Assembly (NCBI GenBank): GCA_017499595.2
Contig: JAFIQS020000021.1
Span: 1 to 25,000 of the forward strand
DNA from: Psilocybe cubensis
Taxonomy: Eukaryota
Direction of reading: 5' to 3'
DNA length: 25,000 nt
In this document: positions 4,176 to 25,000 of the stretch, piece by piece
How the letters are laid out: each line of letters starts with the position of its first letter
Position numbering within the stretch: the first letter of the stretch is position 1
The notes under the pieces: generated by a model
Seen by the model: the letters and a program-made list of their open reading frames with translations, nothing else
Databases searched by the model: none
What the model was told of the DNA's origin: nothing
Translations under genes and position numbers: made by a program

Positions 4176-5261
4176 AGGTTTTCGTACCAAGATCATGCTT
4201 GTCGAAGGGTGGTTCAACGCAGAGTTCATTATGATGTTTTATTATACGTATAATAAATTGTTGGTAGTTTGAAAGACCTTTTTATACAATTCAAAATGGT
4301 AGTGTCAATTCACGCTCGACGGGCGTTTTGGTTTATTTCTTTGAGGCTTTTCGGGCGATATTCTAGATTATATGTAAATTAAATAATCCTCGGGTATAAA
4401 ATATCATAGCAATTCAAGGTACAGACAAAGTAAAAGGTACATGTTCACATAGACCATCTCTCGGACGCGTCCAAGACACGTCAGCGCAAAATGTTTGAAA
4501 GTTTGCCTCTCGTTTCGCCGCGGGCACGACCTTGGCACTAACTAACAATTTTTTCAATTCGGATTTGTTTCGCTTCTCATACACGATTGGACGAAAGTGC
4601 TTCTCTAACCTACAATCACTTGTTGTGATATTACGGTGCGTACTTGGTTGAAGCAAATACGGTTCAACCATGATATAGGTCCTCACAGAGTAACAATCTC
4701 TGTTTCACCACTCTTCGGAGAGTTGCAAACATCAATGGTCTACTCATACGCTCATACTATCCATATTTAAGTTATTCTGGTCAGCCGCCGAAGAGAAAGG
4801 AATAGTGAGTTTGACCCGTTTATACTAGGACAAAAAAAACAATAAAATCCGACTTGTTGTAAACTAGAAGCTTTGTTTTGACAGTAACTGTTTCCAGTAC
4901 GTTCCACTTCACCTCTAATTTCGTGCACTTTCAGCATTAACGTATTACAATTGTTGGCTCATAGTACGTGTCTATCGGAGGGATGAGTCGGTCTTGTAAG
5001 TACAAAGCGGCTGACACTACCTATGTGCGCATCAAAATCGATCGTAAATACCCATTAGATGCGTGCGTTCGGGTTTCTCGCATGGGATACACTTACACTT
5101 TACAGGCCTCACTGACTTCCTTTCAATTGATGGATTCTTCGCAACAACGCGCTAACCAGCTTTGCTTCATCCGACACGTACTGATGTACGAAATCGGGGA
5201 ATGTGTTTGGGGCTCTCCGTCCAGTGGGCCGCCTTGTGATTATGCTTGACCACTTGATCCC

Positions 5262-5267
5262 TATAAA
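5262..5267 (+). promoter_or_regulatory. Probable TATA box of the GH17 gene
   Basis: TATAAA about 45 nt upstream of ATG 5308. Confidence 0.55.
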
Positions 5268-5307
5268 TACTGGACAAGTCGAGCTAATTTGGTCAGTAGC
5301 TTTCGAA

Positions 5308-6608: not shown

Positions 6609-7096
6609 TTTGTAAAATATATGGAAGTTGCCTAGGTGTTGTATGTATACTGTCAACCAGACCCAGACCCCACACTCTCCAAACATAATAATAATAGCAT
6701 CAGCTTTTGTACCTATTCCTACGATGTGGACACCCATGGAATTGCGGATGTTCAAGAAGGTGATCACTAATAACTCAACATTACTACAACCTAAAACATG
6801 CGTACACTTTCTAATCTTATCTTCCAGCTCCTCTACCTCACCAACAAACGTATCAAACATACCAGCATCGAGTTGATCCTACTGACTATACAATCATCCC
6901 GATGCAATCAACGGATGGCGACACACATACCCCAGTCACTCAAACCCCCATTCGGCAATGGATGGATGACGAAGCGTATGAAGCCGTCCCGATTACCAGC
7001 GGAAGGACGGCGGTCCTCCCCGTGAGCTATTCCCTCCACAGATAGGGCAGTGGAAACAGATATATTACATTGTGAGCAAGTTGACTGGTACTAACA

Positions 7097-7592
7097 CACT
7101 GATATCAACCATACTTTGAAAATATAGCTCTCATTGCAAGCTACTTAACAAATTCCGATTCCCATTATTATAGGACTCTGTTGTCATTTTTCATCCGGGT
7201 CTAATTGAGTGGGATGCAGACTCGATCTTACTATTTCGTTTTTCCCATTTCTGCACCGTTTTCCGTCAATAAAAATAACATTATATATACATCACCTCTT
7301 TAGAGCTTGCATTCAAAATTTGGAGAGAAACGGGATGCGGGAAGAACGAATCAGTGTGTTTGATGATAGTATGGATTTTGAATCGCCGCCCAAAAAATAT
7401 TAGAAAGCCGCAAAAAAGCGACGGCATTTTATAACTTTTTGTTTTGTAACCTTACCATGGTGACGACCGTTGGATCAGTATGCGAACATTGAACGTTGAA
7501 CCACTGATATCAACTGGAACCTGGAAATATTACCGAACGATGGTAAGAGTTATGACTGCATGATTTGAAATCCGATTGAAAATTTATTATAG
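7097..7592. repeat. Diverged direct repeat pair (~7097-7173 and ~7502-7592)
   Basis: Exact CACTGATATCAAC at 7097-7109 and 7502-7514. Both copies are followed, in the same order, by AAATAT, TCCGATT and TTATTATAG blocks. Confidence 0.35.
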
Positions 7593-7966
7593 TAGGTCCA
7601 GCAGCGAAACACCTGCGCGGAGAAAAGTCATCAATAAGATTCCAACTTCATCGCAGTTGGCCAAGTATATCCCACCAAATCATACGTGCTCTCTTTCGGC
7701 AGAATTCTGCAATTTCGCAATTGAGGATCTTTCCAGCAGGCAAAGTCTCAGATAGTTCAGCGGTGATGTGATCACAGAATCCTTTTCGGCCGCCGTTGCG
7801 GAAGGAAATGTCTCTCTGGCCCCGTTTTCACTAGCACTAAAAAACCATATGGCTTGATGTTCTTTACACTAGAGGTTTTGTATGACGGGAAATGTTTATG
7901 GTACGTCCCACTCCAACTCTAACTTCATGGGCTTTCGTGGGCGGTCACTGAAATGATCCAACTGTT

Positions 7967-7994
7967 ACGAGTCCTATACGGAGTATAGACTCGT
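7967..7994. other. DNA hairpin, candidate sub-terminal structure of the element
   Basis: ACGAGTCCTATAC-GGA-GTATAGACTCGT: 12-bp stem with one bulged C and a c(GGA)g triloop. An A|TC dinucleotide lies 10 nt upstream (7956/7957). Confidence 0.6.
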
Positions 7995-8506
7995 TCTTTT
8001 TCCCAGGCCTTTCTCAGGTGGCCAATGTCAGGTATGCGTTTCCGCGGGAATTTATTTCCCAAAATGAATGTTCTGCTTATGTATTCTGATCTTTTGTTCA
8101 TTCGCTTATTGCCGAAATTTTTTCGCGAGCTGCTCGTTTATGCCGCACCGTGAGACTGTTTCCCCTTTTCTCTCTCTCTTCCTCATCCTCTATGTTAGTT
8201 GCCGTCTGTGCGCGTTGTCGTTATATTTGATTCCTTTCCTTTGTTTTCGCTACAGTACCATATTTTTATGTACTTGTCTGTACTTATTGTGCATAAGCTG
8301 CCTCAATATGCGTCTCTGTTAGGCCGTCTATTTCTCGTGGATATGTCTACTGCTTTATCTGCTTTATCGCGCTCTAAATGATGTTGATGTGAAGATTCCA
8401 TCCTGATAGCCATGTAGTCTTTCAACTGTTTATGTCTTTCTGTCAGCGTAATGTGCAGTTATATACTAACAACTAATGTTTTTAATATAAGATATTCATT
8501 TCTCTT

Positions 8507-9637
8507 CTATTCTCTGTGTATGGTCATGTCCTCCATCTTTTGTCTTACTTCTCTATCTTCGTCATACACTCGACGGCGCTTCATGACGGGTATCTTCGCG
8601 ATTTCTGCGTCATTCTCTATGAACTCTGCTGGGCCATTTCGTACGTCTTGCTGTTTGTGAGGTCAGTGTTATTCATTTTCCCTGAACATGCTTGCCTCAC
8701 TAACCACATCATGTATGAGCGTAAGCGCTCTCAGAACTGTGGTCATCGCGACAGCTTTGTCTTTGTGCATCACTCCTATGAATGCTATGGTCGCTCGGAC
8801 TATGTCTCCAACTTTGAACACGCTGGGAACCACACGCGATGTGCTGAGTCATTGATCGGATACTGTTAGTATGCCGCTGTGTATGAGATGTACCACAAAG
8901 CTCACCTTGTACCGTTATCGTTTTTGACTTCTCGCAAATAGTCGACCTTGTTGTCCATGGTGTGTATGAGATCGTCTCCTCTCATGTGCGCCAACACGCC
9001 GTCTGGATCTACACCCATATCGAACGCCAGTCCTGCTTCTGTCGGCGCATGCTTTCTAGGTGTGAAGTAACGCGTACTTGCGTCGACCGCCCAATGACCT
9101 TCGTACATGCTTAAGTTCCACGGCTTTACCTCTATGTCTTCCTTTTTGAGGTATGTCTTCATCATCTCGTGTACATGCTTTATACTAACCGCATCGTCGT
9201 TGAATCCGTTGCTCCGCAGTCCGGTAATTCTAACTCCCTGTCGAAGATATATCGCTTTCTTCTTCATAGACGGTGTTGCGTCACTACGATTGGGTCAGTT
9301 GGGTATGCATTTTGTATATATAGTTATATCATTTACCTTAATTTAATAGGCGGCAATTCGTTTCTGCATATTGCGCCGTACACGTAGAAGTTTTGTTCTT
9401 CAGTGGAATTCGTTCGTGTAATTCTCCACGAGCGAGGTTGTTCTACGTAGACCACTCTATGATCTTCGAGCTGTCAATCGTGTTTTTGGAATCGTCAGTA
9501 TGTTCGTCCATCCATATGAATATGTAAAATACCTGAAAGTCTACCACCGGCATAGCATCGTGTATCGATTTTCGGGCGTCGCAGTACCCTTGGTCCATGA
9601 GGGCCTGCGCAGCGTATTGGTTATAGTTTGGGTCCAT
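8507..9637 (-). CDS. Uncharacterised ~299-aa protein, 5 exons; beta-rich C-terminal domain (candidate OB-fold nucleic-acid binder) plus basic NLS-like KRRR
   Basis: Minus-strand exons 9637-9533, 9470-9337, 9283-8906, 8843-8705, 8650-8507 (900 nt, open; GT-AG introns with CTRAC branch sites). Translation includes YLRQGVRITGL, STRYFTPR, VDPDGVL, HTMDNKVDY, VPSVFKVGDIVRATIAFIGV...MTTVLRALTLIHD and VMKRRRVY. Confidence 0.8.
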
Positions 9638-10655
9638 GCAATTGGTTGAGGGTGGGATTCTGTTTCACTTTTTTTTTTTTTTGGCCTTGTTTGACCGTTT
9701 GGTTTTATGATGTTTCTCGCTTTCCGACTCGTATTCGTGTGTCCCTCTTGTGTAATCTTTCCGTTTCTGTCCGAAATCTGCTACTGTTCCGTTCTCATCG
9801 TCGTGCTTGGTTCGTACTGGTTGTTAATGTTTTGTCTCCTCTCCGGTTGTTGTTACCACCGATCATTTTGTAAAATTTTCATATATTTTTCCTCCTTGCT
9901 TATTCGCTATCGGCGCCGTTTTGACCCTGTCTACTTCGCTCTCATATGTTCCTCTTCCCTGGTGTTCCTGTTCTCGACCGCGGCATTAGGTCGGTTGTTC
10001 ATCTATGGTGTTGTCGTCTCCTCATATGACGCGCTTCATTAAATTGCATTTGTTCTTTAACTTGATTTGGTGTACCGAGTGCCTACTTTTCTCGTTTCAT
10101 GGAGCTCCTCTTGCTTTGCTTGCTCTTTGCCTTTGCTCATCAACGTGTCGCTTCGCCTAGTTCACCTTTTTCGTGTTTTTATGCGTAGTGCGACCATCAT
10201 CTGTCGGCTTTTTTTTTACATCAAATTTTGGTCCATCATTTTTTTTGGCGTCTTTAATCCCTTAAGGCAATCGCTCCTGTACAATGGTGTTTGCTCTTGG
10301 TACGCTCATCACGCGTAATATCTTATTCGTGCTGACTTGCTTGTCTCAGTGGCTTCGGGAGTGTGTATGGTATTCGCTAAAGGCGTTTCCACTCATCGCT
10401 TTCTATCGTACCGAGCGTTAGTCTTTGCATTTTTCTACTCCGTATCAACTCATGGATTTTATTATCCTTTTTCTCTGTTTTTCATGTTTCTCCAAGTAGT
10501 ATTTATCATGTTGAATTCTTGTGATGCTGTCTCATAACCTTTTCTATAAAACCTTGGTTTTTTTTTGTTTAGTGCTTTCCATCTTCGACGCTCTACCTGC
10601 CTCGAGCTCTATCATCTACAGTATTCCTAAGTCTCTTTATCGTTTCAATCACATT
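9638..10655. promoter_or_regulatory. Divergent intergenic region (putative bidirectional promoter), strongly T-rich on the + strand
   Basis: Lies between head-to-head ATGs at 9637(-) and 10656(+). Contains T14 at 9669-9682 and many shorter T runs. Confidence 0.45.
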
Positions 10656-13600
10656 ATGGTTTCCATCAACTCTGCTTATGCTCCTGCTTCTCCCAAGCCT
10701 ACATATGCCGATGTGGTTGCTGGTGATTGCTCGCCCTCTGCTGAATACAAGTAAGCCGTTCCATGTTATTCTATGTACAGTTTATGATTTTAAACGTTGT
10801 GCGTTGTAACAGACATCGTCCTGCAAAAGGCATTCGCAACGTCATAATCCACGTCAAACCCGACAACAAAGAAGATTCTTTTTCTGTTGCCACTGACTCT
10901 GATGACGGACCGTTAGACAGCGTCGCCTCTCGCATTGCTGCCGCAAAGGTCGTCAAACCGGGGAACAAGACTGTTGCGTACGTGTATCCCATACTATCTT
11001 ACCCTGTGTCTTCAATCACGCACGTCGTTTACATGCGTTCCTTCCGTTTTCTTATCTCTGTATTGCAGCGGATCAGATGCGTTGGACAATTTTGTTAGGA
11101 AGACCAGGTCAACAAGTGGCTTGTATGATTTTAGCTGCACATTCCGCACTTTTTTTCTTTTGTTTTGACTACTTTATTGTCGTTATAGGAAACGCGATAT
11201 CGAAGATGCTGCGCTCGTTTGTTCCGATGAGGAGTTGCCGTTAGTGAAATTGCAATCTGATAACCCTTATGTTATGCTGATATTTTGGTTTTGTTATATA
11301 TTTACCTCAGAGCCCGAATTTCCCCTCCGAAGAAGAGTCGTACATCCGTCAGCGCGAACGTTGATGCGACTGTCAATCACGTATCTTACTCGAGTGATTC
11401 TTCGGTCGAAGTCATTCGAGTCGTCGATAATTCGTAAGTTTTACTGCTTGTATCAAATCTCGCCATTATTTCGTTCTGCTTAATACCGTTGGATACTCTG
11501 AACAGAGCCAACGCCCGATATCAGAAGGGTATTAGTGATGCCATATTAGTCGATGATTCATCCGCGGATGAAATGGTCTCTGTTCATCCTACCAGCGGGT
11601 ATGTTTATCATTTACATCTTTTATGTTATTATGTCATACGTTCTCACATCCGCGTATTACAATTCGTGCTCCTGTCAGAGCAAAACCGAATAAACAGAAA
11701 GGCAAGAAGCCACAGAAGACAATGCCCCAAACGGTCCGTATCAAACAAGAGCCTGGCATTGTCATAAAGCAAGAAGCATCTGCTCGTCCCACGTCCGTAT
11801 TGCCCTCTGAAGTTATGGTTAAGAAAGAGTCTGTCGATGTTCATATCCCTCTTGCACCGGATAACGTTGCGTCCACCCCCACAAAGAAAGACAAAGGAAA
11901 ATCATCCGTTTCAAAGAAGGGCTCTGTTGGGATTCGTAGATCCGCTCGGCGTTCGGAAGCTGCGATCGAGCGAGTACCGTTCTCTTTTATTCCACATTGC
12001 GATTGACTGACGTCCTGCTCTTAGTCTGTCGGTGTCTCCGCTGAAGATTGGGTCTGAAATTTCTGGATCTGCTGTTTTGTCTCCACCCATTACTTTGCAG
12101 GGTGATGCTGATTCTGATATCAACCCCTTCTTGCCGTCACCTGAAGTCATTTTGGGCACCAAGTATGTGTATGCTCTAAAAGTCTACGTGAGCATCACTT
12201 AACTTGATTTACAGAATTCCAGGAAAAGGCAAATCCATTCGCATTGTTCTTCCCAGCGGTCCAATCGATCTTCACGAAGATGAAGCTATGATGTTTGCGT
12301 CAGTAATGTTCATTTGTGGTGTTTTTCTTTTATCACTTCTTAATCGGGTTTGATCAGGCACGCGGTCAGAGAGAGTCGAATGCATCAGACCACTTATCCA
12401 TCTTCCAATGCTCTCCCCAGCGGTCCTTCCTCTAGCAAGTTGCTCAAAGCGCTCGATGATGCGTATGAAAAGTACAGTGAAGCAGATGCTCTTAAAACCG
12501 AACATTCGACTTTGGACCCCCCTGTTCAATTTAAGGCGTCTGTAATAAGGTAAATATCCGTCATGCCAATATATGTGATCGTCTTTATCTACCTTTATTC
12601 AACAGTGCCAAATCTATCGACGCGCATTCTGATGTGGTTATGGCCAGTCTTTCTGAACAGCCAAAAACTCGACAAGTGCAGTTTCAATCTTCTTTGACAG
12701 CTGTTCCAATCAATGCCGCTGTTGAAGCTCCCCCTACACCTGTCACTCCAGTTCGAGTTCCCCGCAAGTTCAAGGATGTTGTGCCTGCCGGTCCTGTGAA
12801 CAAAACTCCCAGTCTTGGATTGAACGGGCCGGCTCTGATGGAGGATACCATGCGCTTCTCGGTCAAGTAAGTTAACGTACCCATATGTCATCTTCAATCT
12901 GTTGTCTGACTTGATTTGTGTCTGACCTTAAGACATCTGCCGAAGAAATGCGAAGTTACGAAGACAGATTTACAAGATAGTCTTTTAGAAAGCACTTACG
13001 TTGACCTTCCCAATCTTCAGTAAGTTTTTACCTTCTAAGATAATCGATGTTTTGTTTTGACTATTTCAAGGCATGGTATTCTCAAGCAATGGAACTCGCC
13101 TAATGTCATGGCACCAGTCGACTGTGTTTCTTTTTCTCTCTGCGGTGAGAATTTCCCTGAGATGAATTTTGAGTGAGTTTCGTAAAGCCTTTGCTATACT
13201 TTACTTAATGATGCGTATTGCTTACTCTCTCTACTATGTTATATAGAAACGCTTATGACGCTGTGACTTTTGTAAGGAACAAGAACTTTATCAATCCTTC
13301 GCGGGTTTCGCCTCTGGACGTCAGCATCCTGTATATGGGAAACGATCGTAAGCGTGCCACTTTGCAGTGCAACTCGGTGCCTGCTATCTGCCTGAGTGCA
13401 ATTCTCACCCGCGATTCGTATCTATTGGAGCCGATATCCAAAGGACTGTGTAACAAATTTTTGTCTGGTCACATGATGCACCAGGAGTGGGAACGCTTCG
13501 CTGGATTTGCTTGCATGGCGTTCGGACATCAGGTTATGGTAGCCTCTATCCGTGATAAGGCAATCACCTTTGGCACTATGGGAGTTAAATGTCAGTGGGC

Positions 13601-14123
13601 ACATATGCTTACTTTTTTTTTTTTTTCTTTTTGTACTCACTCAGACACTCACTCAAATAGCGGAGCGGGAATCAATCTCTCCTTCAAAACCTCCTAGGAC
13701 ACCCGGCATACTTTCTGGACAGAAAGATGCCAAACTCCAAGGAGGAAGCCGAAAAGCACTTAAATCAAGCACCAGGTTCAAGACCATGATGGATTCAACC
13801 GACACTAGTAAGTTATCAACATTGTATGTGCTTCAAACCACTGACAATGTCATATATTAGTTCCCATATATGATTCACGTAACCATGCCTTCAATTTCAA
13901 CACTGACCTCGACCGGTTAGACGAATTGCTACCTAGATGGCGTCGCGGAGAGATTCCACCTAACTCCTTTGTTATGGTGGCGTACACTATGACTCAATAC
14001 GAGAAGGAACGGTCATTTCATCTGTGTACCAACATACAGTATGCCGTTGTGTTCGGTACGGAACACGATACCAGCGACATAGAGGCAGAACAGGAGTCCT
14101 TTGCAGGTTTTGATGAAGACTGA
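10656..14123 (+). CDS. Uncharacterised ~829-aa protein, 16 exons: long S/P/K-rich disordered N-terminus, globular C-terminal region (candidate OB-fold) and acidic tail
   Basis: Exons 10656-10750, 10813-10977, 11069-11122, 11189-11239, 11311-11433, 11506-11598, 11679-11969, 12025-12162, 12215-12298, 12358-12549, 12606-12866, 12933-13019, 13071-13172, 13247-13590, 13661-13807, 13861-14123 (2490 nt, open; intron 7 needs a GC donor). The C-terminal part reads FINPSRVSP, HQEWERFAGFACMAFG, IPIYDSR, LPRWRRGEIPPNSFVMVAYT, LCTNIQYAVVFG, DIEAEQESFAGFDED. The 3' exons are more secure than the 5' ones. Confidence 0.72.
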
Positions 14124-14512
14124 ATATTTCATTAAACCTAATGTCTTTTAATACACATAGTTATGGTATTATTTACATTCTCCTTGCTATCTGTTGTTAT
14201 TTTTTGGTATCATATACGTCGCGTAGTCTATTACTTCAATGTTTTTGTTCTTTCTTCGTGTCATTTGTACTCTGCTTCCTGTATCTTTGAATATCCAGTT
14301 AGTATTCTGTCTTATCAACTGCTTCGTATCATATTCTACTTGTCTTCCGTACAAATTTCTCCCGATATAATAATACATACATATTATCATGGCATTACAG
14401 TTGGACATATGCTTTTCCTTTGCGTGTCCCCTCTGCCAAAATTTAAGCGCCCGTTGTCAATAATCGTACGCTACACAGAGTTACCCGGTGTTACCTGTTG
14501 TCAGTGTCTACT

Positions 14513-14535
14513 TATATAAATCGAGGGTCCTCGAT
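14513..14535 (+). promoter_or_regulatory. Candidate TATA box with adjacent palindrome upstream of the Rep-helicase ORF
   Basis: TATATAAA at 14513-14520 overlaps the inverted repeat ATCGAGG-GT-CCTCGAT (14520-14535). A C11 run follows at 14567-14577. Confidence 0.3.
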
Positions 14536-14856
14536 GCGATTCCTTTAATTATTCCTACACATTCCTCCCCCCCCCCCTTGATCGATCTCACACTCATATC
14601 CATCAGACTAGTGAACATATCTATTTACCTTGAAACTTACATTACTCTTTTATATATGCTCGCCGCATCACTTCATTTCTACGCTCTTTTTATTTTAGTT
14701 TCTGGTTGGGGTGAGTTATCTTCTCCTTATGTGTACTGTGTATGATCTGACATTTGTCGCTATTTTGTAGGAATCCTATGTGGCCACATACAATGTTGCA
14801 TTAATGTACACTCCTTGAACGCATCCAATTATGCTGGTGATTCTCGAACAATATCG

Positions 14857-17800
14857 ATGCTTAGTAGTTGTATAGCTGTCAATCAACAGTTGTTTAAAAC
14901 AAATAATTGGTCAATAGACTTTTGCTTACCCTGTGGGGAATTTCCAACCTACGATGTTCGATTTCCTGGCAATAATCTATTGCGTAGTCGTACATGTACT
15001 AGATCTAGCAGCGTATCAAGTGGGCACAAAGTTTGTAGAGTGCGTCTTACTGTAGTATTAGTTCATGTTATGCATTGCTTGAATCGTACTACTACGTCCG
15101 CTTCTGAGATACCCGTCAAACAGTCCCACTCGTATGGAAATGTGCGTTTGTTGCACTCGCAATTTCGCCGCTTCATATATATTGATTGTCATTCAATGTC
15201 GGCTTATTTGTGGTTAAGATTCACGCCTGCAACGTATACACGTAGAGTTTCTATTTTAGTATCTCTGTTGCTCCAACGTAATCATCTCAGGAAGTGGGAA
15301 TATAATAGGTGCCTGGTAGCCATTTTGCCAAGATGCGCCTTGCATCAATTCACGCTCGACAGACATTACACGCAACCTCGTCTTTGGTCAGAGAAATATC
15401 CCTTCATTAATATAGTATCGAAGGGCGTTCTAATGTATCCGTTTCAGTGTTCCTGGTTATTCGGTCTCAACTATTTCCACTACATCTCATTTACTGCTAA
15501 TGTTTCTGAATGCTCATACTATCATCCTTCCGATGTCTTGCAAGGCGGAGGTGGCGGTGTTTCAAAGGTTGTCAGCTCAGAGATTTTGCGATACCGTGTG
15601 GTACAAGATACGGGATGTGCCTCCGTTCAAGCTAAAACTAAATACAGATTTGTGAAGTACCTTGCTACAGACGCTCACATTTCAACTTCCATTGACAATA
15701 TATCTGATTTAATAGTTGCTAGGTTCTCTCTCTTTGACACTGCTAGTTGGCTGTCTGTTTCTGAAATTAGGTCTATTGCAAGTTTACATGGAGTGTACGG
15801 CATCAATTCAACCACAAATAGAGGCAATGCCATTGAACTTTTGCGTGATCATGTGTGCGGAACTTGCCTTCGTAATGTCTGTATTTTTGAACGTGTGGTA
15901 TCAGTGTCAGATAGAAAAATTAAGAGCAATTCATCTTCTTGTAATCCAGATCGGCAGTTTGAACTTACAGACAGTGCTGTAAATTTTTCTCGCTTCGTTT
16001 CATCTGCTTTAATAGAAAGTCATATTGTACCCTATAGTGGCACAGCATCGTTTAATTATAGTGATACATACAAGTTCGTTAGGTATATGCCGTACATACG
16101 TGATTTAGAGTCATTTCTCTCTGCCGAAGCGTCCGCACCCCACAAACGCCGTCTAGTTCTTTGTCGATTTTCTATACAAAGTGCAACCAAATGGCTCACT
16201 TCAAGCGAGCTTCGGGATGTACTGAAAGAACACGGTATTACATCATTTAATTCCAAGACCAAAAAATCTGCTCTGATAAAATTAACAGATGGTCATGAAT
16301 GTGGTATATGTTCCACTCATTTATATATCTTTGAGGCAATACCTAGTACAGTCAATTCAGAAGAGTCAATCATGCATAATCGTAACCAAAATGTTCTACA
16401 TAAACGAGCATCTCGAGAACGTCAGAGGCAGGCAGGCGCAGAATCTGCTAATTCCGATGTTGACATGCTCAACGGTGATGCTTTTGTATCCACATCAGAC
16501 TCTGACCACACTTCAAACGACCATGTGTTTCCGCCACAACCACCGTCAAAGCTTCTGATAGAGGAAATCATCAATGGATTTTGCGCTGATTCATCTGCAT
16601 CTCTACTGGAGGAAGCAGGCTGCATGGTCTGCGGTCTGCTGCAGCCTTTGCATAATTTAACTCACTTGTCTATGTTTGATCATCCCCTTGACATACTCGC
16701 AGTTGAGGGAGCTACCCGTGTAGAGAGATTACATCCTGACGACCCGGTGAAGGACATCCCGGGCCCTGTGATCGATCCTGCATGTAACCATGTATGCGAT
16801 ACTTGCTCTGCTGCGTTGAAAAAAGGTCATGTGCCGAGACATTCGCTTGCAAATCATTTGTGGTTAGGTAAAATACCTTCTCAGCTGCAAGATCTTTCGT
16901 TTGCAGAGCGCATGATGATTGCTCGCATTCGGCATAATCGCTGTCTGGTCAGAGTTTCCTCTGGGCGGGCTAAAATGACAGCAAATGTCATCATGTACTC
17001 TAATCCAACGCTGAAAGTGTATCATGAATTACCTCCTTCAAAGCCAGAACTTGACGAGGTACTTGCCTTTATATTTACAGGACCAACCCAACCCACGGAA
17101 GAAGAGTTCAAGCGTAGTCCAATGCTAGTGCGTCGCAATAAGGTCGCAGATGCTCTGGAATGGTTGAAACTTAACCATAAGGATTATATTGATCTTGAAA
17201 TATCCAAGAAAAATCTCCAGTCTTACCCGCTGATAGGTGTCCCCGTAGCTGTAGACTACAGACAGCGCAACGGTACTAATCGTATGGAGTCTACAATGAG
17301 TCTACACGACGAAGGCGAAGATGAAGGAACTGTAGACGGACCTTGTCCGTTTACTGTCCATGGCTTGAGTGGAACAGACTATGGCAATATGTCCATACAA
17401 GCTTTGAAGGCAAAAGCCTTGCAACACATAGAAAATGAAGGCAAAATGCTAGCTATTGGGCATGATCCAAAACCGCAGTCTATGTACGATAATCCTCAGG
17501 CCTATCCGCAGATGTTCCCTTGGCTATTTCCTTACGGTTATGGTGGAATAGGTCAGCATTGTCATAAGCGTAAACTTTCAGAGTCAGAACATAAGCGAAT
17601 ACTGCTTATGCACCATGATAAGCGTTTCCAGCGCGACCTTTATTTTCCTATTATTGCATTCAATCACGAGCAACTGAAAGGTGGCGTTACTGGTAGCTTT
17701 CTTGTTGCAAAACGCCGTAATTTTGATGCGATATCTAAAAGATTGCTCTCTATAGACAAAACGGTTCTTCAAGACATTTCCTCTCGTCTTGTAAATGGGG

Positions 17801-20800
17801 ACCATGTATCACCTGAAACAGACAGTGAGAAAGACTGTTACAAACTTTTAGATGATCTTGACCACGTTGGAGGATATGTTAAAGGGTCAATCACGTCTAA
17901 AAAGTATATGCGCAATGAGATATGGTCTTTGCTTTCTTTCAAAGGTTGCCCAATATGGTTTATAACCTTGTCACCTGCCGATAACAGACATCCTATATCA
18001 ATATATTATGCCAAAGAACAGCTGACCTTTACACCAGACATATTACCTTCTTCTGAAAGGAATAGACTGGTTGCACAGAATCCCGTATCGGCTGCCCGTT
18101 TTTTTCATCTCATAATTGAATTGTTTATTAAACACGTGCTAGGCGTCGGATCCAATATTCATCGAGGTTTGTATGGTAAAACTTCAGCGTACTATGGTAC
18201 GGTAGAACAGCAGGGAAGACTCACCTTACATTTGCATATGTTACTATGGATTGAGAATTGCTTGTCTCCACAGCAAATCCGTGACCGTATTATGAACAAC
18301 GACTCTGCATTTCAGGCGAGCCTTCTATCATATTTGGAAGGCTGTCATCAAGGCGAATTTCTTACAGGAAACATGCAGACTGTTAAAGACCGCGTGCCAC
18401 ATATTTACGACAAAGAAATTGATGGACTTCATTCAATTATACAAGAGGATGACGAGGCTGTAAATTCCAGTTACGCAGATCCGACTCTAACACTCCCTAT
18501 ACCGGTAGAACATGCTTGTCAAGATTCCAATGGTCCGGACCACTGCACATCATGCATTTCTAATGCTGAATGGTGGGACAATTACGAAACTACAGTCGAT
18601 GATATCATATTGAAGTCCAATGTGCACAGATGCACTGTTTCATACGGTCAGCAAATTGATGACCCTGACGGATCAAAAGGTATAAAAAATATGCCTAAGG
18701 GCCCGAAAGGTTGCCTGGATTGGAATGGAAATTGTAAAGCACGATTTCCGCGAAGGCTGTACGAACAGTCTCAAGTCGATCACGTCGACGGTCACATATT
18801 TTTGAAAAAGTTGGAAGCGATGTTAAATACCTTTACTCTTCCGCTGTCGTACCTCACAAGAAGTAATACCGACGTGACATGTCTGTTGTCGGGTACTTCG
18901 ATAAAAGCAATAATATATTATATATCAGACTATATTAGCAAACCCGCATTGAAAACGTATCAGATATTTACCTCTATGTATGACGTGTTTGAACGTGAAG
19001 AAAAAAAAGTTAAAGACGATGTCAAGATTGAAGGTAAAGACGCAGGCAGAAGGTTGATGCTTAAAATTGTCAACTCTCTGTCTTCTAAGATGGAGATAGG
19101 TTCTCCGATGGCCTCCTTGTATTTATTGGGCAACCCTGATCATTACACTGATCATACCTTTGTACCTTTTTGGTGGAGAAGTTTTGTAAGTGACGCAAGG
19201 AGCAGTCATAAATCCGGTATCACTGATGACCAAGCCGCCCACCTACCTACCGTAGAGGATCTAGAAAATGCTGAAGATGAAGAACAGAAAGTTATATTAG
19301 CTCGACATGACGGTCATTATGTAGGTTCTAGTAATGTAGATGATTATAAATACCGCCCAGTCACTCAAGAAGACATGTCTCTATTCGACTGGATTAGATC
19401 TTATGAGCGCCGTAAGCTCACTAAAAATGAAATGGAGCGTTTGCGTAGTGAAACACTCACCTTCGAAGATGATCATGCGTCCGACATACGTGAAGGCGGG
19501 GGGATGGAAGATTTCATTGATGCATGTCTTGGTATACCTGCAGATGATGATTCTGATCAACGTGTTAAATATGACGGTGTGCGAAAAAATATTAAAATAA
19601 ACAAAAGAAGTTTTGAACGTTTCACTGAGGAGCACCCTCTTTATTCCACTCACGTAGTCAAATGTGACTCATCCCGAGCGCACAATATTGTCCCCAATTT
19701 TCTAGGCGGTCCCCTTCCACGGCGCGACAAAGGCGACAGAGAGTATTATTGTTGCAGTATGCTGACCTTGTTCAAACCTTGGAGGTCTGGGTTAGATTTG
19801 AAATCATTGCATCAGACTTGGGAACATGCATTCACCATTTACGCTTTTTCCGACCGACAGTTGAAACTAATGGATAACTTTAATCTGCGATATGAATGTT
19901 TAGACGACAGAGACGATTTTCACGCACAGTTAAGAAGGAAAGACGGAGAACAACAAGATGTTTACACGGATGAACTCTATCCTGATGGTTGCGGTCTCGA
20001 CGATCAATACAACGACTTTGTCGGCCTTGAATTCGGTGAAGATCATTTAGATTATGAAGAGATTGGTGAGGCATACCGCAGAGAGGTGTTGTTAAAGCGA
20101 GAAGTAGATGGCATCATACAATCTGCAGGATTGTTTTCTAACGCCTCTAGCGATGTTACATGTCAAGAAGTCAGCATGTTCAGGCCTGCTGAATACAAGA
20201 CGCATACGAGCTGGGCATCTCTAATAAAAGCTGAAAAAATTAGACTGTTTAAACAGAAGTTGTCCGGTTACGTGCCTTCAGATCCCTCAGATGATATAAC
20301 AAACATTCATATTTCCAACGAAGAGTCTACTAATGACGTCAAAGTAGTTTCTTCGGATTATCTGCTCAGGTCGTACAAGGCAAAGCAAATGGAACATAAT
20401 GTGTTAGTAGATTCTACAGTCGCCGATTTCACCTTGAATACGGAACAGGAAAGGGCTTTCCGTATTGTTGCCAATCACGCTAGTTTGCTGTCGCCTGGTC
20501 AGCTGAGGATGCATCTCGGTGGCATGGGCGGTACTGGCAAAAGTCAAGTGATCAAATCTATCATTCATATGTTTGAGTCGAGAGGCGAATCTCACCGATT
20601 TGTGGTTCTCGCACCCACAGGTACCGCTGCTGCACTCCTCAACGGATCTACTTATCACAGTGTATTAGGAATACGGTCCAAGTCGGATCGTGGTCAAGAC
20701 TTTTCAAAAAACGAAGTCGCAGTAATAAATGACGTACGAGCTCGATTAAAGGGTGTCAAGTATATCTTTATTGATGAAATATCTATGCTGTCGTCGAGGG

Positions 20801-23172
20801 ATTTATATGCCATTAGTAGACGTCTGTCACAAGTGTTTAACGACGATACACTGTTCGGAGGTATATCAATGATCTTAGCTGGTGACTTCGCTCAGCTACC
20901 GCCGGTAGGTAATCTCCCCTTTTATAGTCCTTCCATTAAACATACGCAAGACGCTCGCATGAAGGTGTCCGAGCAAGAAGCTACTCTAGGCAAGATATTC
21001 TGGCACCAATTCACGACTGTCGTTATTCTAAAACAAAACATGAGACAAAAAACGCAGACTGAGGAAGACGCAAAGTTGCGCACTGCACTTGAAAACATGC
21101 GGTATGCCGCCTGTACAGACGCTGATATATCGTTCCTCAAGTCAAGGTTAGCTTCTAAACTGACGACTATTGAAGGTAAACCTATATTGACTGACCCTGC
21201 TTTTCGCAACGTATCTGTTATCACTGCGTGGAATAATCAAAAGGATAGGTTCAATGAGCAGGGCATCGCAAGATACGCTAAAGAGAGCGGACGTACATTG
21301 CATCATTTTTTCTCTGTCGATAGTCTGGGTACACAAGAAGGAGAAACTCGCAGGCCTCGCGGACGACCATCAGGATCGTCTAAAGCAACCAAACAGACAA
21401 AGATGTCCCAGCGTCTTCAGGAAGCCCTATGGGGTCGCAGCGCCTGTTCTAGCGAACAAGTGCCAGCAAAACTTTCTCTGTGCGTAGGTCTGCCAGTTAT
21501 GATACGGCATAACGACGCCACAGAGTTGTGTATCACTAAAGGACAGGAGGCTGTCGTCGTAGGATGGGAATCTTCTGTTGGTGCGTTTGGTAGACCTGTA
21601 CTTGATACGCTGTTCGTGGAATTAATCAGACCGCCGAACCCTGTATCATTAGCTGACTTGCCTGTTAATGTTGTTCCACTTACGCGAACGTCGTCTCGAG
21701 TAACATGTACTCTCAAGTCTGGCACAAAAATCAATGTAAACCGCCAGCAGGTATTAGTGCTGCCCAATTTTGCCATGACCGATTATTCGTCTCAAGGTAA
21801 GACGCGAGATTATAACTTGATACATTTAGATCATTGTAAGGATCATTCGTCTTATTACACCTGTGTATCTAGAAGTTCGAACGCCAGTGGTACCATCTTA
21901 CTCGGTAGATTCGATGCGTCTAAGATTACAAAGGGTATTAGTGGGCACCTGCGCCAGGAATTCCGTGAACTCAATATATTAGATCATATCACCACCATGA
22001 AATACAATGGACAGCTTCCAGACGGCGTGTTGCATGGATTAAGGAATCCGACAATTCGGTCTTTCATGCTTCTCGACGTATCGCAATCCATTGGTACAGA
22101 CTGGCATCCTACCTTGGCAGTCTCTTCATCAAAGCAGCTTATCAGAACTCCGGAAAAGGACGGCACCTGGTCTCTCAACAGTGTTAAGGCAATTGTCACC
22201 GACAGGGCAAAAGATAAGCGCAATAAGCGCCAACCAATTCGCTCAGACTGTATAGGACCGAGGAAACGAATGTTGCTAAGCACACCCTCCGAGTTTGCGG
22301 TCCTACCTGTAGGTACAAAGTGGGACGCGGACAACTACAGTTGCAGTTACGACTCCATCTTTACCGTGTTATATAACCTATGGATAAGTGCACCTGAGAT
22401 GTGGACCAATAGATTCAGTGATTTGACACCGTTATTAGACAGACTCAGCGGACAATTCGCACTTGTGCAGAATGGATCAATTTCTCTAGAGAGCGCACGA
22501 AACGACGTCAGAAACGATATGCACTCACGCAGCCCGCTTGATTTTCCTATGGGTCCAAATATGACATACATTGACAGAGTTATGACCGCTGTGATGGGCC
22601 AGCGATCTTCTGGAATGTCTGTTCTCGTGTGCAGTAAATGCGGCTACAATGACCAAAGACCCGTAATGCGACTAGGCGAATATATAAGTGTGGCACGCAC
22701 TGGCGTTTTCCACGACGACTCCCAGGAGGTGTCTTCTATTTCAGACAGTTTAGGTTTTAACCTGAGCGATGCTCAACGATTGAGTTCGAAGAATTGCCCT
22801 TCGTGTGCACAAAATCAGCATATCGTATATATGTCGCTATGCCATAAGGTTGAACGATTACCTTACATTATGACAGTGGATATATGCTCGCCACGGTTTG
22901 CTATAAACCCTGATATTATGTTCAAATCGGATAGTTTCAACGTAGAGTATAAGCTTACTGGGGTTGTCTACGGCGGGCAACATCATTTTGTTTCTCGGTA
23001 TGTTGACCTGCAAGGGGACGTGTGGTTCCACGACGGCATTACTACTGGAAATAGATGCGTAAAGGAGGGTAATGTTCATGACCTTGTTAATGATGTATCT
23101 CAATGGCTACGCATTTCCGTAAATGGGGGAAACTTGAAACATGCATTGTATGCTATTTACGCGAGGGAATAA
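14857..23172 (+). CDS. Helitron-type Rep-helicase (RepHel) polyprotein, ~2771 aa, intronless, with a C-terminal USP-like protease domain
   Basis: Frame open from 14815 (first ATG 14857; true start uncertain). DUF6570-like region (CMVCG, SLANHLWLG, LQDLSFAERMMIAR, VRRNKVADALEWLKLNHKDY; ~16530-17190). FPWLFPYGYGG. Rep motif 1 WFITLSP, HUH motif EQQGRLTLHLH (18229-18237), Y2 motif YISDYISK (18919-18942). PIF1 helicase: GMGGTGKS (20521-20544), APTGTAA, IDEISM (20770-20787), GDFAQLPPV, KQNMRQ, FAMTDYSSQGKT, YTCVSR. Confidence 0.93.
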   Translation: MLSSCIAVNQQLFKTNNWSIDFCLPCGEFPTYDVRFPGNNLLRSRTCTRSSSVSSGHKVCRVRLTVVLVHVMHCLNRTTTSASEIPVKQSHSYGNVRLLHSQFRRFIYIDCHSMSAYLWLRFTPATYTRRVSILVSLLLQRNHLRKWEYNRCLVAILPRCALHQFTLDRHYTQPRLWSEKYPFINIVSKGVLMYPFQCSWLFGLNYFHYISFTANVSECSYYHPSDVLQGGGGGVSKVVSSEILRYRVVQDTGCASVQAKTKYRFVKYLATDAHISTSIDNISDLIVARFSLFDTASWLSVSEIRSIASLHGVYGINSTTNRGNAIELLRDHVCGTCLRNVCIFERVVSVSDRKIKSNSSSCNPDRQFELTDSAVNFSRFVSSALIESHIVPYSGTASFNYSDTYKFVRYMPYIRDLESFLSAEASAPHKRRLVLCRFSIQSATKWLTSSELRDVLKEHGITSFNSKTKKSALIKLTDGHECGICSTHLYIFEAIPSTVNSEESIMHNRNQNVLHKRASRERQRQAGAESANSDVDMLNGDAFVSTSDSDHTSNDHVFPPQPPSKLLIEEIINGFCADSSASLLEEAGCMVCGLLQPLHNLTHLSMFDHPLDILAVEGATRVERLHPDDPVKDIPGPVIDPACNHVCDTCSAALKKGHVPRHSLANHLWLGKIPSQLQDLSFAERMMIARIRHNRCLVRVSSGRAKMTANVIMYSNPTLKVYHELPPSKPELDEVLAFIFTGPTQPTEEEFKRSPMLVRRNKVADALEWLKLNHKDYIDLEISKKNLQSYPLIGVPVAVDYRQRNGTNRMESTMSLHDEGEDEGTVDGPCPFTVHGLSGTDYGNMSIQALKAKALQHIENEGKMLAIGHDPKPQSMYDNPQAYPQMFPWLFPYGYGGIGQHCHKRKLSESEHKRILLMHHDKRFQRDLYFPIIAFNHEQLKGGVTGSFLVAKRRNFDAISKRLLSIDKTVLQDISSRLVNGDHVSPETDSEKDCYKLLDDLDHVGGYVKGSITSKKYMRNEIWSLLSFKGCPIWFITLSPADNRHPISIYYAKEQLTFTPDILPSSERNRLVAQNPVSAARFFHLIIELFIKHVLGVGSNIHRGLYGKTSAYYGTVEQQGRLTLHLHMLLWIENCLSPQQIRDRIMNNDSAFQASLLSYLEGCHQGEFLTGNMQTVKDRVPHIYDKEIDGLHSIIQEDDEAVNSSYADPTLTLPIPVEHACQDSNGPDHCTSCISNAEWWDNYETTVDDIILKSNVHRCTVSYGQQIDDPDGSKGIKNMPKGPKGCLDWNGNCKARFPRRLYEQSQVDHVDGHIFLKKLEAMLNTFTLPLSYLTRSNTDVTCLLSGTSIKAIIYYISDYISKPALKTYQIFTSMYDVFEREEKKVKDDVKIEGKDAGRRLMLKIVNSLSSKMEIGSPMASLYLLGNPDHYTDHTFVPFWWRSFVSDARSSHKSGITDDQAAHLPTVEDLENAEDEEQKVILARHDGHYVGSSNVDDYKYRPVTQEDMSLFDWIRSYERRKLTKNEMERLRSETLTFEDDHASDIREGGGMEDFIDACLGIPADDDSDQRVKYDGVRKNIKINKRSFERFTEEHPLYSTHVVKCDSSRAHNIVPNFLGGPLPRRDKGDREYYCCSMLTLFKPWRSGLDLKSLHQTWEHAFTIYAFSDRQLKLMDNFNLRYECLDDRDDFHAQLRRKDGEQQDVYTDELYPDGCGLDDQYNDFVGLEFGEDHLDYEEIGEAYRREVLLKREVDGIIQSAGLFSNASSDVTCQEVSMFRPAEYKTHTSWASLIKAEKIRLFKQKLSGYVPSDPSDDITNIHISNEESTNDVKVVSSDYLLRSYKAKQMEHNVLVDSTVADFTLNTEQERAFRIVANHASLLSPGQLRMHLGGMGGTGKSQVIKSIIHMFESRGESHRFVVLAPTGTAAALLNGSTYHSVLGIRSKSDRGQDFSKNEVAVINDVRARLKGVKYIFIDEISMLSSRDLYAISRRLSQVFNDDTLFGGISMILAGDFAQLPPVGNLPFYSPSIKHTQDARMKVSEQEATLGKIFWHQFTTVVILKQNMRQKTQTEEDAKLRTALENMRYAACTDADISFLKSRLASKLTTIEGKPILTDPAFRNVSVITAWNNQKDRFNEQGIARYAKESGRTLHHFFSVDSLGTQEGETRRPRGRPSGSSKATKQTKMSQRLQEALWGRSACSSEQVPAKLSLCVGLPVMIRHNDATELCITKGQEAVVVGWESSVGAFGRPVLDTLFVELIRPPNPVSLADLPVNVVPLTRTSSRVTCTLKSGTKINVNRQQVLVLPNFAMTDYSSQGKTRDYNLIHLDHCKDHSSYYTCVSRSSNASGTILLGRFDASKITKGISGHLRQEFRELNILDHITTMKYNGQLPDGVLHGLRNPTIRSFMLLDVSQSIGTDWHPTLAVSSSKQLIRTPEKDGTWSLNSVKAIVTDRAKDKRNKRQPIRSDCIGPRKRMLLSTPSEFAVLPVGTKWDADNYSCSYDSIFTVLYNLWISAPEMWTNRFSDLTPLLDRLSGQFALVQNGSISLESARNDVRNDMHSRSPLDFPMGPNMTYIDRVMTAVMGQRSSGMSVLVCSKCGYNDQRPVMRLGEYISVARTGVFHDDSQEVSSISDSLGFNLSDAQRLSSKNCPSCAQNQHIVYMSLCHKVERLPYIMTVDICSPRFAINPDIMFKSDSFNVEYKLTGVVYGGQHHFVSRYVDLQGDVWFHDGITTGNRCVKEGNVHDLVNDVSQWLRISVNGGNLKHALYAIYARE
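15571..16335 (+). repeat. Two tandem ~110-aa protein repeats (helix-extension-helix-like segment plus H...HxCxxC putative Zn site) within RepHel
   Basis: Repeat 1 (15571-15891): VSSEIL...KYRFVKY...RFSL...WLSVSEIRSIASLHGV...HVCGTC...IFE. Repeat 2 (15997-16335): VSSALI...TYKFVRY...RFSI...WLTSSELRDVLKEHGI...HECGIC...IFE. Confidence 0.8.
22306..23172 (+). other. USP/peptidase C19-like papain-fold cysteine protease domain at the RepHel C-terminus
   Basis: Cys box WDADNYSCSYDS (Cys 22342-22344); CSKC (22630-22641) and CPSC (22795-22806) Zn-finger pairs; His box YKLTGVVYGGQHHFVSRY (His 22984-22986) followed by WFHDG (Asp 23032-23034); terminal ALYAIY strand. Confidence 0.75.
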
Positions 23173-23774
23173 GATGAAAATTTATCCAAAGTGTTTTATG
23201 GTTATGGAGGCCTCAGTTGATACATGCTCAGATAACAACTGTTTATATTCATATCAGTATGGTATTTATCGTTCGATAGTGTCGCAGCGTATCAGTCTAT
23301 TAGACTCAGCTGTATAATCTGAACCCATAGACTACATTGCATCGAGCATCGTGTGGTTGAAAGGACGATCCAAAAGCGTGGGAGAATGTCGTACATGTTC
23401 CTTTAATACCTTCGCATCAAAGGGATATCGGAACTTGCCGAAATTTCGTTCACCGCTCTGTTTAAGAACTGTGCCTATCCGACTTGAACACCTTTTTCGA
23501 CGTTGTCATTTGCTGCCACATCGTACCAGTATTCGTATCTTCAAGGCTAATATACAATATTTGTTAGGCTGTAGGTTATATTACGATATATGATAGAAAT
23601 ATTGATGGTATTCTAAATGTGTTCAAATCGATAGTTCATTTTGAAGAACACCTTAAACCTGTCAGCGACTGCTTTGCAGAGTCGTTGCTTTAGTATGTCT
23701 ATATCTACTCACGCAATGCTATACATATAAACGGCAAATTTTTAATTTTTTTTCTGCTTCTTTTTAGACTACCT

Positions 23775-25000
23775 ATGGCTCCCAACCCATTCTTGGACTT
23801 AGAAGCGAATGTCGATCACGGAGATTCAGAGGATGGTTCAGCCGAATCTGACGAATTTGGTGCGCATAATATTTCGTTTTACTCAGTCTCATGTCATTCC
23901 AACATACGAGATAAACCAAATTTACTCGCAGAATGCTTCATCGACGACGGAACTCAATCCCATGAAGATTGTGACGGTTCATCATCTGTGGCAATGGACA
24001 AACCCATTCCTGTTACAAAGAGAGACCGACTGGCCCTCGTAATTCAACAAATTGAAGAGAGAACACGTGGTAGATCTCACTCACTGCCCGCCTCTGATAT
24101 GTACCGGGGTGTGGAACCATTGTATTCAAACGCTGACAATCCTACTGTTTTGTCACCGCACGGAAACACTGATTCGGGCTTCGAAAATCTGCCCACGGAC
24201 TATCCTACATGGAGGATTGGATGTAAAGTAAGTTTAATACCATCGAATTAAATTTGTGTGTTGCCAACCATATCGATGAACAATACGTAAGGTCGGATAC
24301 GAAGAAATCGCGGTCGCTTCTTTACTCAAAAACTCGCGCCGAGAACATCATATTCGGTCCGCGTTTTCACGCAGTTCTGTACATGGATACATATACTTGG
24401 AATGTTTGATGGATCAGCCTATGATTGACCTTATCAAAAGATCGCCCGGCATCATCGTAAAAACTACGGACGTGCTCCTGAGTCCGATCGATAAGAATGA
24501 GGCTCAGCAACTGTTGTACATGGGAGGGGACATTACGAACCTATCGGTCGGAAAATGGCTCAAGGTTAAACGAGGTGTATACAAAGGCGATGTAGGCTTT
24601 GTCGTTTCGAAAGGATCGTGGGGGGTGTCAATGCTTATGATCCCCCGTTACGAGTACGTGTCCACCAAAACGAAGTCATCTCGTAAACGGAAGACATACA
24701 CTGCGGTGCCCGCGCCTAAGCTATTCGATCCGACAGGCCTTCGTAACTCTCATTTATACATAGAATCAGGCAGAGCATCTGTCTATCGCGTAGGTGATCT
24801 GATCTTTGAGCATGGTTTGGCCCGGGTGGACTACGATCCCAGACACGTTGCCTCATGTCGTGAAGGTCTGAGTTACGTGACGTATACATCATTTTGTATG
24901 AGTGGGCATCCCGCACTCCATCACGCGCCGATACCAAAGCCAAAGGAATGGATCATGCGAACCATGGAATGGGTGGTAATGAGATCTACAGGTTGGCTCG
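23775..25000 (+). CDS. Divergent Spt5-like transcription elongation factor paralogue (acidic N-terminus, NGN domain, KOW1); 3' end beyond the window
   Basis: Exons 23775-23859, 23932-24227, 24292->25000 (open to the window end). NPFLDLEANV and FIDD acidic N-terminal motifs; NGN motifs WRIGCKVGYEE and IRSAFSRSSVHGYIYLE; KOW1 GKWLKVKRGVYKGDVGFV, LMIPR, PAPKLFDP. TATAAA at 23726-23731. Confidence 0.85.

Follow-up and report, generated by a model that had tools for sequence, protein, structure and literature searches.

A divergent Spt5 homologue behind a Helitron RepHel gene in Psilocybe cubensis and its Agaricales family on mobile DNA

The DNA analysed here (the window) comprises positions 1 to 25,000 of the forward strand of contig JAFIQS020000021.1 from Psilocybe cubensis (assembly GCA_017499595.2). 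Close to its end, directly behind an intact RepHel gene of Helitron type, begins a second gene whose product resembles the transcription elongation factor Spt5. We think it probable that this product is a divergent Spt5 paralogue from a transposon-borne family of Agaricales, here residing in a block of at least 17 kb.

A spliced gene for a divergent Spt5 homologue

The Spt5-like gene is a real, spliced gene, and its first half lies inside the window. As read from the DNA and its translations, it starts with the ATG at 23775 (+), 602 nt past the RepHel stop codon, and consists of three exons and two introns, with exon 3 continuing past the window end. A 744-aa database protein, P0004, encoded on a 3.67-Mb contig, is 100% identical over the exon-3 translation and contains both splice junctions (SDEF to ECFIDD and WRIGCK to VGYEE). 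Given this length and the exact junctions, the window covers residues 1-363 of 744. The parts of the gene and the spacer ahead of it are as follows.

23173-23774, no strand: spacer, 602 nt, from the RepHel stop to the ATG of the Spt5-like gene
23775-23859, + strand: exon 1, with the start codon and the acidic N-terminal motif NPFLDLEA.., which aligns with the acidic N-terminus of solved Spt5 chains
23860-23931, + strand: intron 1, 72 nt, GT..AG, at the SDEF/ECFIDD junction of P0004
23932-24227, + strand: exon 2, low-confidence linker and first NGN strand, ending in WRIGCK
24228-24291, + strand: intron 2, 64 nt, GTAAGT..AAG, at the WRIGCK/VGYEE junction of P0004
24292-25000, cut by the window end, + strand: exon 3, rest of the NGN, KOW1 with its linker insertion and the start of KOW2; residues 128-363 of 744

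Homology to Spt5 was assessed at three levels. In Pfam searches, exon 3 alone scored just below the cut-offs for both Spt5-NGN (22.1 against 22.4 bits) and KOW1_SPT5 (20.5 against 22 bits); the whole P0004 passed for Spt5-NGN (25.7 against 22.4 bits, residues 122-181) and stayed below the cut-off for KOW1_SPT5 (17.8 against 22 bits). A profile built from 30 family members matched solved Spt5 chains with E 3.5e-52, in an alignment spanning the acidic N-terminal FLD(L/V)EA..FIDD motif, the NGN, KOW1 with its linker, KOW2 and KOW3. The same profile matched plant RDM3/KTF1 (chain 8hyj_W) with E 1.7e-31, and P0004 by itself matched yeast Spt5 with E 7e-13. An AlphaFold model of P0004 on the family alignment (mean pLDDT 72.8) is confident for residues ~121-205 (NGN) and for 210-345, 350-380 and 408-457 (KOW1-3), and very confident for a C-terminal domain at 590-744 made of beta barrels and a final helix; pLDDT lies below 50 over most of residues 1-115, and residues 507-585 are disordered. 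Foldseek comparison with the PDB returned 39 matches at E<=0.001, of which the best 24 were all Spt5 chains in RNA polymerase II (Pol II) elongation complexes. The isolated KOW1-linker structure 4ytk was matched with a TM of 0.78 and human KOW6-7 (5ohq) with 0.66, and archaeal and bacterial Spt5/NusG NGN structures were found as well. By sequence, family profile and fold, the product of the window gene is a true, very divergent Spt5 homologue.

The order of parts in P0004, as predicted by alignment and model, is an acidic N-terminus, the NGN, KOW1 with its linker, KOW2, KOW3, a disordered region containing one PAWDPS motif that resembles the C-terminal repeat (CTR) of Spt5, and a C-terminal tandem KOW-like barrel with a helix. 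A CTR array is absent from P0004, where the one PAWDPS motif was found and Pfam CTD gave no match; relatives carry one or two such motifs, and the motif aligns with the TPAWNSGS repeats of the solved Spt5 chain 8qsz_Y. Three GW/WG pairs are scattered over P0004, which has no GW/WG Argonaute-hook repeat region.

A preliminary description, made from the sequence of the window, had placed Spt5 motifs in an open frame on the + strand about 600 nt after the RepHel stop, and it was right in place, strand and content. Its remark on a much shorter N-terminal region is borne out by the ~120 residues ahead of the NGN in P0004, where residue 4 aligns with residue 178 of yeast Spt5. The KOW count and the search for the CTR, which it had left to a longer sequence, were completed on P0004 with the result given above. 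Its concern that the gene might be a frameshifted fragment falls away, as the frame of P0004 is intact over all 744 codons.

An Agaricales family in the company of DNA transposons

The window gene is a member of an Agaricales family of fast-evolving Spt5 paralogues, which stands apart from the housekeeping SPT5 lineage. Canonical Spt5 is expected to score far above the Pfam values of P0004. When ten long family matches were scanned with Pfam, the full, strong Spt5 set was present in none of the ten, and their scores lay near or under the cut-offs, like those of P0004. The exhaustive HMMER search that defined the family covered 1.84 billion cluster representatives and gave 666 matches at E<=1e-3, 198 at E<=1e-10 and 46 at E<=1e-30, with the best non-self relatives of P0004 only ~35% identical to it; no canonical fungal Spt5 was among the 150 matches listed. 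All 19 fungal matches looked up by name came from Agaricales (Psilocybe, Panaeolus, Pholiota, Flammula, Cyclocybe, Hymenopellis and Dendrothele), and a twentieth named match, a bacterial Ig-like protein, was judged spurious. In the databases the best relatives, which are from Psilocybe, Panaeolus, Pholiota, Flammula and Cyclocybe, are called NGN- or KOW-domain proteins, or 'SPT5'. As a lead only, the ESM Atlas holds separate Basidiomycota clusters, one named SPT5 with Pfam domains on 92-95% of its members and others called 'uncharacterised' or 'KOW domain-containing' with domains on 16-46% of theirs. Scans of viral_contigs and genome_contigs revealed no relative.

Among relatives, Ka/Ks ranged from 0.26 to 0.67 with a median of 0.36 (Nei-Gojobori, 27 exon pairs from 14 locus pairs); the Spt5-like proteins are under moderate purifying selection. 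The statement of the preliminary description that Spt5 is typically single copy in fungi fails for Agaricales once this family is counted. One member, P0013 of Panaeolus cyanescens (1292 aa), has a C-terminal extension of ~500 residues without a Pfam match, which may be a fused neighbouring gene model or a real extra domain.

That the family is carried on mobile DNA, specifically on DNA transposons, is supported by its copies and by its neighbours. One Psilocybe cubensis cluster holds ten sequences that are 98-100% identical; contig data exist for five of them and place each on a contig of its own (3.05-4.68 Mb). At least six divergent members, from different 50%-identity clusters, were found for Panaeolus cyanescens, on contigs of 3.6-15.7 kb. 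In addition, JGI metagenome contigs were scanned with a degenerate pattern taken from a 10-member alignment, S[IVT]RG[SWA][VI]Y[LVI]E[CAG], and up to 10 kb of flank was kept on each side, which gave 72 confirmed Spt5-like loci (L numbers). This pattern cannot match the window protein (SVHGYIYLEC) and also misses its two nearest relatives, P0009 and P0010 (H at the fifth place), so that the window's own subclade was never sampled. Neighbours were identified by clustering the open reading frames (ORFs) of the flanks and then searching Pfam. Within the 25 loci that have at least 5 kb of total flank, 17 have a neighbour of DDE transposase type at a distance of 0.6-6.4 kb, and in 8 of these 17 the transposase lies downstream of the Spt5-like gene. 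The neighbours divide as follows.

Transposase_21/tnp2 (EnSpm/CACTA type): 10/25 loci
Plavaka transposase: 5/25 loci
KDZ-associated CxC2 gene: 2/25 loci
None of tnp2, Plavaka or KDZ: 8/25 loci, including one with a Gypsy element and two sharing three unknown ORFs

Comparison of the loci with one another shows what travels together. A 7.4-kb segment with the Spt5-like gene and tnp2 is collinear between L011 and L013 (88% identity), with unrelated outer flanks and a homology that starts 0.45-0.6 kb upstream of the gene-match start. The gene and ~8.5 kb of L047 are enclosed by inverted repeats that measure 425 nt or more, match each other at 87-97% and extend further outward. Between loci with different transposases, the shared DNA amounts to the gene plus ~0.05-0.65 kb ahead of it and 0.01-0.56 kb behind it: L002 (Plavaka) and L017 (tnp2) have 3.6 kb in common at 86%, and L043 (tnp2) and L050 (KDZ) 2.6 kb at 83%. 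Within the 95% identical pair L008 and L036, the tnp2 segment is inverted relative to the gene in L008. On these alignments, the pattern of shared DNA looks like that of a cassette swapped among elements. Three consecutive + strand ORFs (~3 kb) downstream of the Spt5-like gene, within long inverted repeats, were also seen at L046:3643-6645 and L047:3120-6122; none of them matches Pfam, and a transposase that escaped recognition may be encoded there.

Of the 38 loci with 900 bp or more of upstream DNA, 31 possess a conserved motif of ~70 nt, whose core is roughly GGTGGTGGTA..GAAGAGGAAAGGCGTG.GAAA, no further than 1.1 kb ahead of the gene match. It is mostly duplicated in inverted orientation, making up a near-perfect palindrome that stands 0.25-0.85 kb before the gene-match start (e.g., L013:9255-9490 and L035:1720-1913; also in L001, L004, L011, L027, L028, L030, L033, L044, L050-L052, L055 and others). 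In L013 it folds into a near-perfect hairpin with a stem of ~100 bp (dG -125.8 kcal/mol, z -25.9), and in L027 the arms measure ~900 nt and take in the 5' part of the gene. Rfam gave sub-threshold matches of miRNA-precursor type only, as expected of any long hairpin, and these were set aside. The motif is common to tnp2-, Plavaka-, KDZ- and RepHel-adjacent copies and therefore goes with the Spt5-like gene rather than with one transposase; it may represent the end of an element, a palindromic promoter or a site at which the protein is loaded. Single extra motif copies stand upstream of a conserved ORF of no known family in three loci. This was seen for an ORF pair without a Pfam family near tnp2-linked genes (L001:3002-4501 on the - strand, L008:13602-15136 on the + strand and L013:300-1633 on the - strand), with one motif copy lying a few hundred bases ahead of the pair.

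A tree of 66 rows (short search, SH-aLRT support only) was calculated after leaving out twelve near-duplicate loci (L003, L005, L010, L020, L024, L029, L032, L038, L047 and L051-L053). P0009 (Psilocybe cyanescens) and P0010 join the window protein with a support of 98, the window protein itself sitting on a branch as long as 1.18. All DDE-linked loci fall inside one 46-row clade with a support of 81, and the two genes adjacent to RepHel, those of the window and of L035, lie outside this clade in an unresolved grade with proteins of Psilocybe, Flammula and Pholiota.

The RepHel neighbour, the block and competing explanations

The gene ahead of the spacer is given here together with the only block edge seen in the window.

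14815-23172, + strand: RepHel ORF, 2785 codons, uninterrupted; DUF6570 136, Helitron_like_N 115 and PIF1 95 bits
7965-8009, no strand: left edge of the block (17 kb or more), a short repetitive end piece that includes a hairpin (7969-7992); loose ends in the runs X12, X13 and X10

With an intact ORF carrying DUF6570, Helitron_like_N and PIF1, the former is a complete Helitron RepHel gene, for which 764 relatives were found at E<=1e-20, the best 60% identical. No Pfam family matches its last ~485 residues (21715-23169), but these share 39% identity with the RepHel fragment of L035 and so constitute a conserved C-terminal domain without a name. Further upstream, the RepHel frame (14746-15600) is open for ~270 codons before the first recognisable domain, in sequence that has a non-coding look, and two weak HeH/LEM-like matches were noted in the N-terminal part.

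The association of RepHel with Spt5-like genes is rare across the family. A tblastn search with the window RepHel found such a neighbour in one of the 72 loci (1/26 with at least 2 kb upstream), namely L035, where a RepHel C-terminus is followed ~1.4 kb on by the Spt5-like gene on the same strand and the family palindrome sits between the two. Looking for RepHel neighbours of the named Spt5-like relatives gave no accession match among the 120 RepHel matches listed, which were clusters without names. In the spacer 23173-23774, no long inverted repeat, no copy of the relatives' upstream palindrome and no Helitron 3' hairpin or end was recognised, and DNA words shared with the L035 spacer and all other loci were at chance level; a sigma-70/terminator scan of the spacer, a method unsuited to a fungus, also stayed at chance level and was discarded. 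The Helitron link is unproven rather than refuted, because the scan pattern could not match the window's subclade. The proposal of the preliminary description, that an element encodes a specialised Spt5, holds for a non-canonical paralogue and for a family on mobile DNA, while its link to the Helitron is not supported in the form proposed (RepHel in 1/72 loci, DDE transposases in 17/25); the linkage to RepHel that it wished to see counted recurs once, in L035, and nowhere else in the sampled loci.

Four of fifteen sequencing runs were compared with 5001-25000 at a likeness of at least 90%. In X12 and X13, raw-read whole-genome shotgun runs under the same species label, 8336-25000 is evenly covered, with means of ~51 and ~49 over 25 bins (~35 and ~42 over 5001-8335), and 93-95% of the aligned reads are at least 99% identical to the window. 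This even depth of near-identical reads means that the stretch with RepHel and the Spt5-like gene is about single copy, with no diverged copies at 90-99%, and therefore no copies within the species can be compared for RepHel linkage. X10, again of the same species label, has contigs over 5001-8009 and none over 8009-25000; X10 and X11 contain a fraction of 0.00-0.01 of 1046 sampled words of 15001-25000, and X6, from the same study, contains all of them. According to the reads, the 7965-8009 piece recurs at other places in the genome, where similar yet diverged sequence follows it; an element family therefore seems to end there. In each run, some 20 reads depart from the flank at 7967 into sequence absent from the window, so the right end of the block lies beyond 25000. 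In our reading, RepHel and the Spt5-like gene sit in a composite block that stretches from ~7967 to past 25000 (17 kb or more) and may differ from strain to strain. Over 23775-25000, no frame-breaking variant is among the listed differences from the raw reads of two other samples, a listing that leaves out 104 substitution rows and one indel row.

Several points weigh against a transposon-borne paralogue at this particular site. The stretch is about single copy here, so that this copy is at best putatively mobile. The branch of the window copy is long and it lacks the stretch that aligns to KOW4 in relatives, so that it may be decaying. No DDE transposase is present anywhere in the 25-kb window, and the palindrome was not found in it at E<=50 (nhmmer with a 42-arm model over 25 kb). 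The absence from X10 and X11 rests on assembled contigs, in which holes cannot prove absence. As to the family itself, some loci are the same element sampled twice, and collapsing them at ~95% nucleotide identity reduces the 25 loci to 20, with a DDE transposase in 14.

It is extremely improbable that the gene is the organism's ordinary SPT5, even with the same domain order, best structural matches that are Spt5 and the label 'SPT5' on some relatives, since its Pfam scores are marginal, a CTR array is missing, the nearest relatives are only about one-third identical and occur as many paralogues per genome, and two conspecific runs have no contigs for it; if that absence is real, it cannot be an essential gene. 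Nor do we favour a relic, stranded or in decay, of a gene that formerly travelled on an element and has since lost its partner or function, which would suit the branch length, the lost KOW4-like stretch, the lack of the upstream motif and the single copy; it is quite unlikely given the intact frame with two consensus-like introns, domains that are predicted to fold confidently, and reads without a listed frame-breaking change.

The more serious alternatives concern the carrier. The gene may belong to a separate element of DDE type (EnSpm/tnp2-, Plavaka- or KDZ-like) reaching from the spacer to past the window, with the Helitron as a mere neighbour in a nest of transposons. We hold this tentatively possible: DDE transposases are the family's usual company and stand downstream, that is beyond the window end, in almost half of the linked loci; the onset of homology upstream of the gene in L011 and L013 resembles the length of the spacer; and the block from ~7965 looks composite. 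The window itself shows neither a tnp2, Plavaka or KDZ transposase nor the family's terminal or upstream motif, and its subclade escaped the scan. Alternatively, the gene could be Helitron cargo, captured downstream of RepHel inside the Helitron and moving with it, an option that we consider somewhat unlikely. Here speak the same strand and short distance behind an intact RepHel, L035 as a second and independent case of the same order (the two RepHel C-termini being only 39% identical), the position of both genes outside the clade that holds every DDE-linked copy, and the location of RepHel and its Spt5-like neighbour in a single block that the X10 contigs lack and over which read depth is flat. 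Precedents, as given in the portions of the two sources concerned, are the Helitrons of Pleurotus (HELPO1) with captured genes downstream of RepHel (PMC4289320) and the TET/JBP passenger genes on fungal Helitrons (PMC12730594). Against it, RepHel accompanies these genes no more often than Gypsy fragments do, the palindrome between RepHel and the gene in L035 fits a separate module placed behind a Helitron, the window spacer has no recognised Helitron end and no similarity to that of L035, and the species offers no second copy for comparison. A divergent paralogue of a transposon-borne family, here directly behind RepHel, is compatible with either carrier.

Other parts of the window and its runs gave side observations. 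The 6.8 kb of the block at 8009-14800 hold several + strand ORFs of 90-160 codons (e.g., 11572-12006 and 13212-13697), and no Pfam match in nine ORFs nor similarity to any retrieved metagenome locus was found there. Left of the block, the ORFs at 734-2900 and 6000-6700 resemble, by eye, a spliced MFS-type transporter gene and a glucanase-like gene fragment and would be ordinary host genes. Run X8, which bears another organism label, contains short contigs of depth 2-6 identical to pieces of 10139-25000, either by carry-over or from the same fungus at low abundance.

A possible role and its place among known systems

In Spt5, the NGN sits on the Pol II clamp, KOW1 with its linker lies over the DNA and RNA exits, and the CTR array of the canonical protein serves as a phosphorylated landing pad for other factors. 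Judging from the alignments, the conserved parts of the Spt5-like protein appear to be those that seat Spt5 on Pol II, and the missing part is the CTR array. We surmise that the protein docks on the clamp via its NGN, as Spt5 does and probably with Spt4 as its partner, on polymerases at work on the element, where it would take the place of host Spt5. Without the repeat platform it would escape host control exerted through the CTR, and as an outcome, read-through and expression of the element's genes may be favoured or co-transcriptional silencing blunted. The preliminary description had suggested that such a factor might aid processivity along the 8.3-kb RepHel ORF or counteract silencing, in analogy to RfaH. 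The main alternative role would be that of a dominant-negative factor or decoy. A bolder proposal, drawn by analogy, is that the EnSpm/tnp2, Plavaka, KDZ and Helitron elements of agarics carry their own Pol II elongation factor as an exchangeable cassette of ~3 kb, with the palindrome as its loading site, comparable to the ops sites of RfaH, and with resistance to pausing, termination or co-transcriptional silencing as the gain; we regard this as improbable in its full form.

With canonical Spt5, the large subunit of DSIF, the protein shares an acidic N-terminus, the NGN, KOW1 including the linker, and additional KOW barrels, all arranged alike. It differs by ~120 instead of ~180-280 residues before the NGN and by one CTR-like nonapeptide instead of a repeat array, and its family is multi-copy, transposon-linked and marginal in Pfam, with the window copy lacking contigs in conspecific runs. 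Bacterial RfaH and other specialised NusG paralogues, some of them on plasmids, act as a second factor of the NusG/Spt5 family for a subset of transcription units. The idea of a second factor, in some cases encoded by the mobile DNA that it serves, is common to both, whereas the window protein is eukaryotic and has multiple KOW domains, and no recruitment site is evident for the window copy. Plant SPT5L/KTF1 (RDM3), which the family profile also matched (8hyj_W), is likewise a lineage-specific Spt5 paralogue tied to transposon biology. KTF1, however, is a host gene that helps to silence transposons and has a long GW/WG Argonaute-hook region, in contrast to the three scattered pairs of P0004 and to a family that is itself linked to transposons.

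Ciliate Spt5m, in the parts of the report cited here, is a second, development-specific Spt5 for non-coding, transposon-related transcription (PMC8934623), and differs as a host gene of the sexual cycle for which those parts give no sign of carriage on an element. A parallel in behaviour comes from another protein: TET/JBP dioxygenase genes are described, in the cited portion of the source, as passengers on Kyakuja, Zisupton, EnSpm, Plavaka and Helitron elements of Agaricomycetes, with a proposed escape from silencing (Kojima 2025, PMC12730594). There, too, a host-type gene related to chromatin or transcription is found on several unrelated transposon lineages and behaves in a similar, cassette-like manner. 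From the description alone, in the portion cited, the 'captured genes' capA and capB directly downstream of RepHel in the HELPO1 Helitrons of Pleurotus are alike as genes of unassigned function right behind RepHel in an agaric (Castanera 2014, PMC4289320). The words Spt5, KOW and NGN are absent from the texts of both Kojima 2025 (PMC12730594) and Castanera 2014 (PMC4289320), supplements aside, and full-text literature searches, supplements likewise aside, found no link between Spt5 and fungal transposons.

For genome annotation, the database label 'transcription elongation factor SPT5' on these proteins misleads counts of SPT5 genes in mushrooms. Specialised Spt5/NusG paralogues have so far been known as tools of the host, as in RfaH, KTF1 and ciliate Spt5m. 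A transposon-carried Spt5, if true, would be a new way for mobile DNA to seize the transcription machinery of its host, and would join the TET/JBP genes carried by the same fungal transposons.

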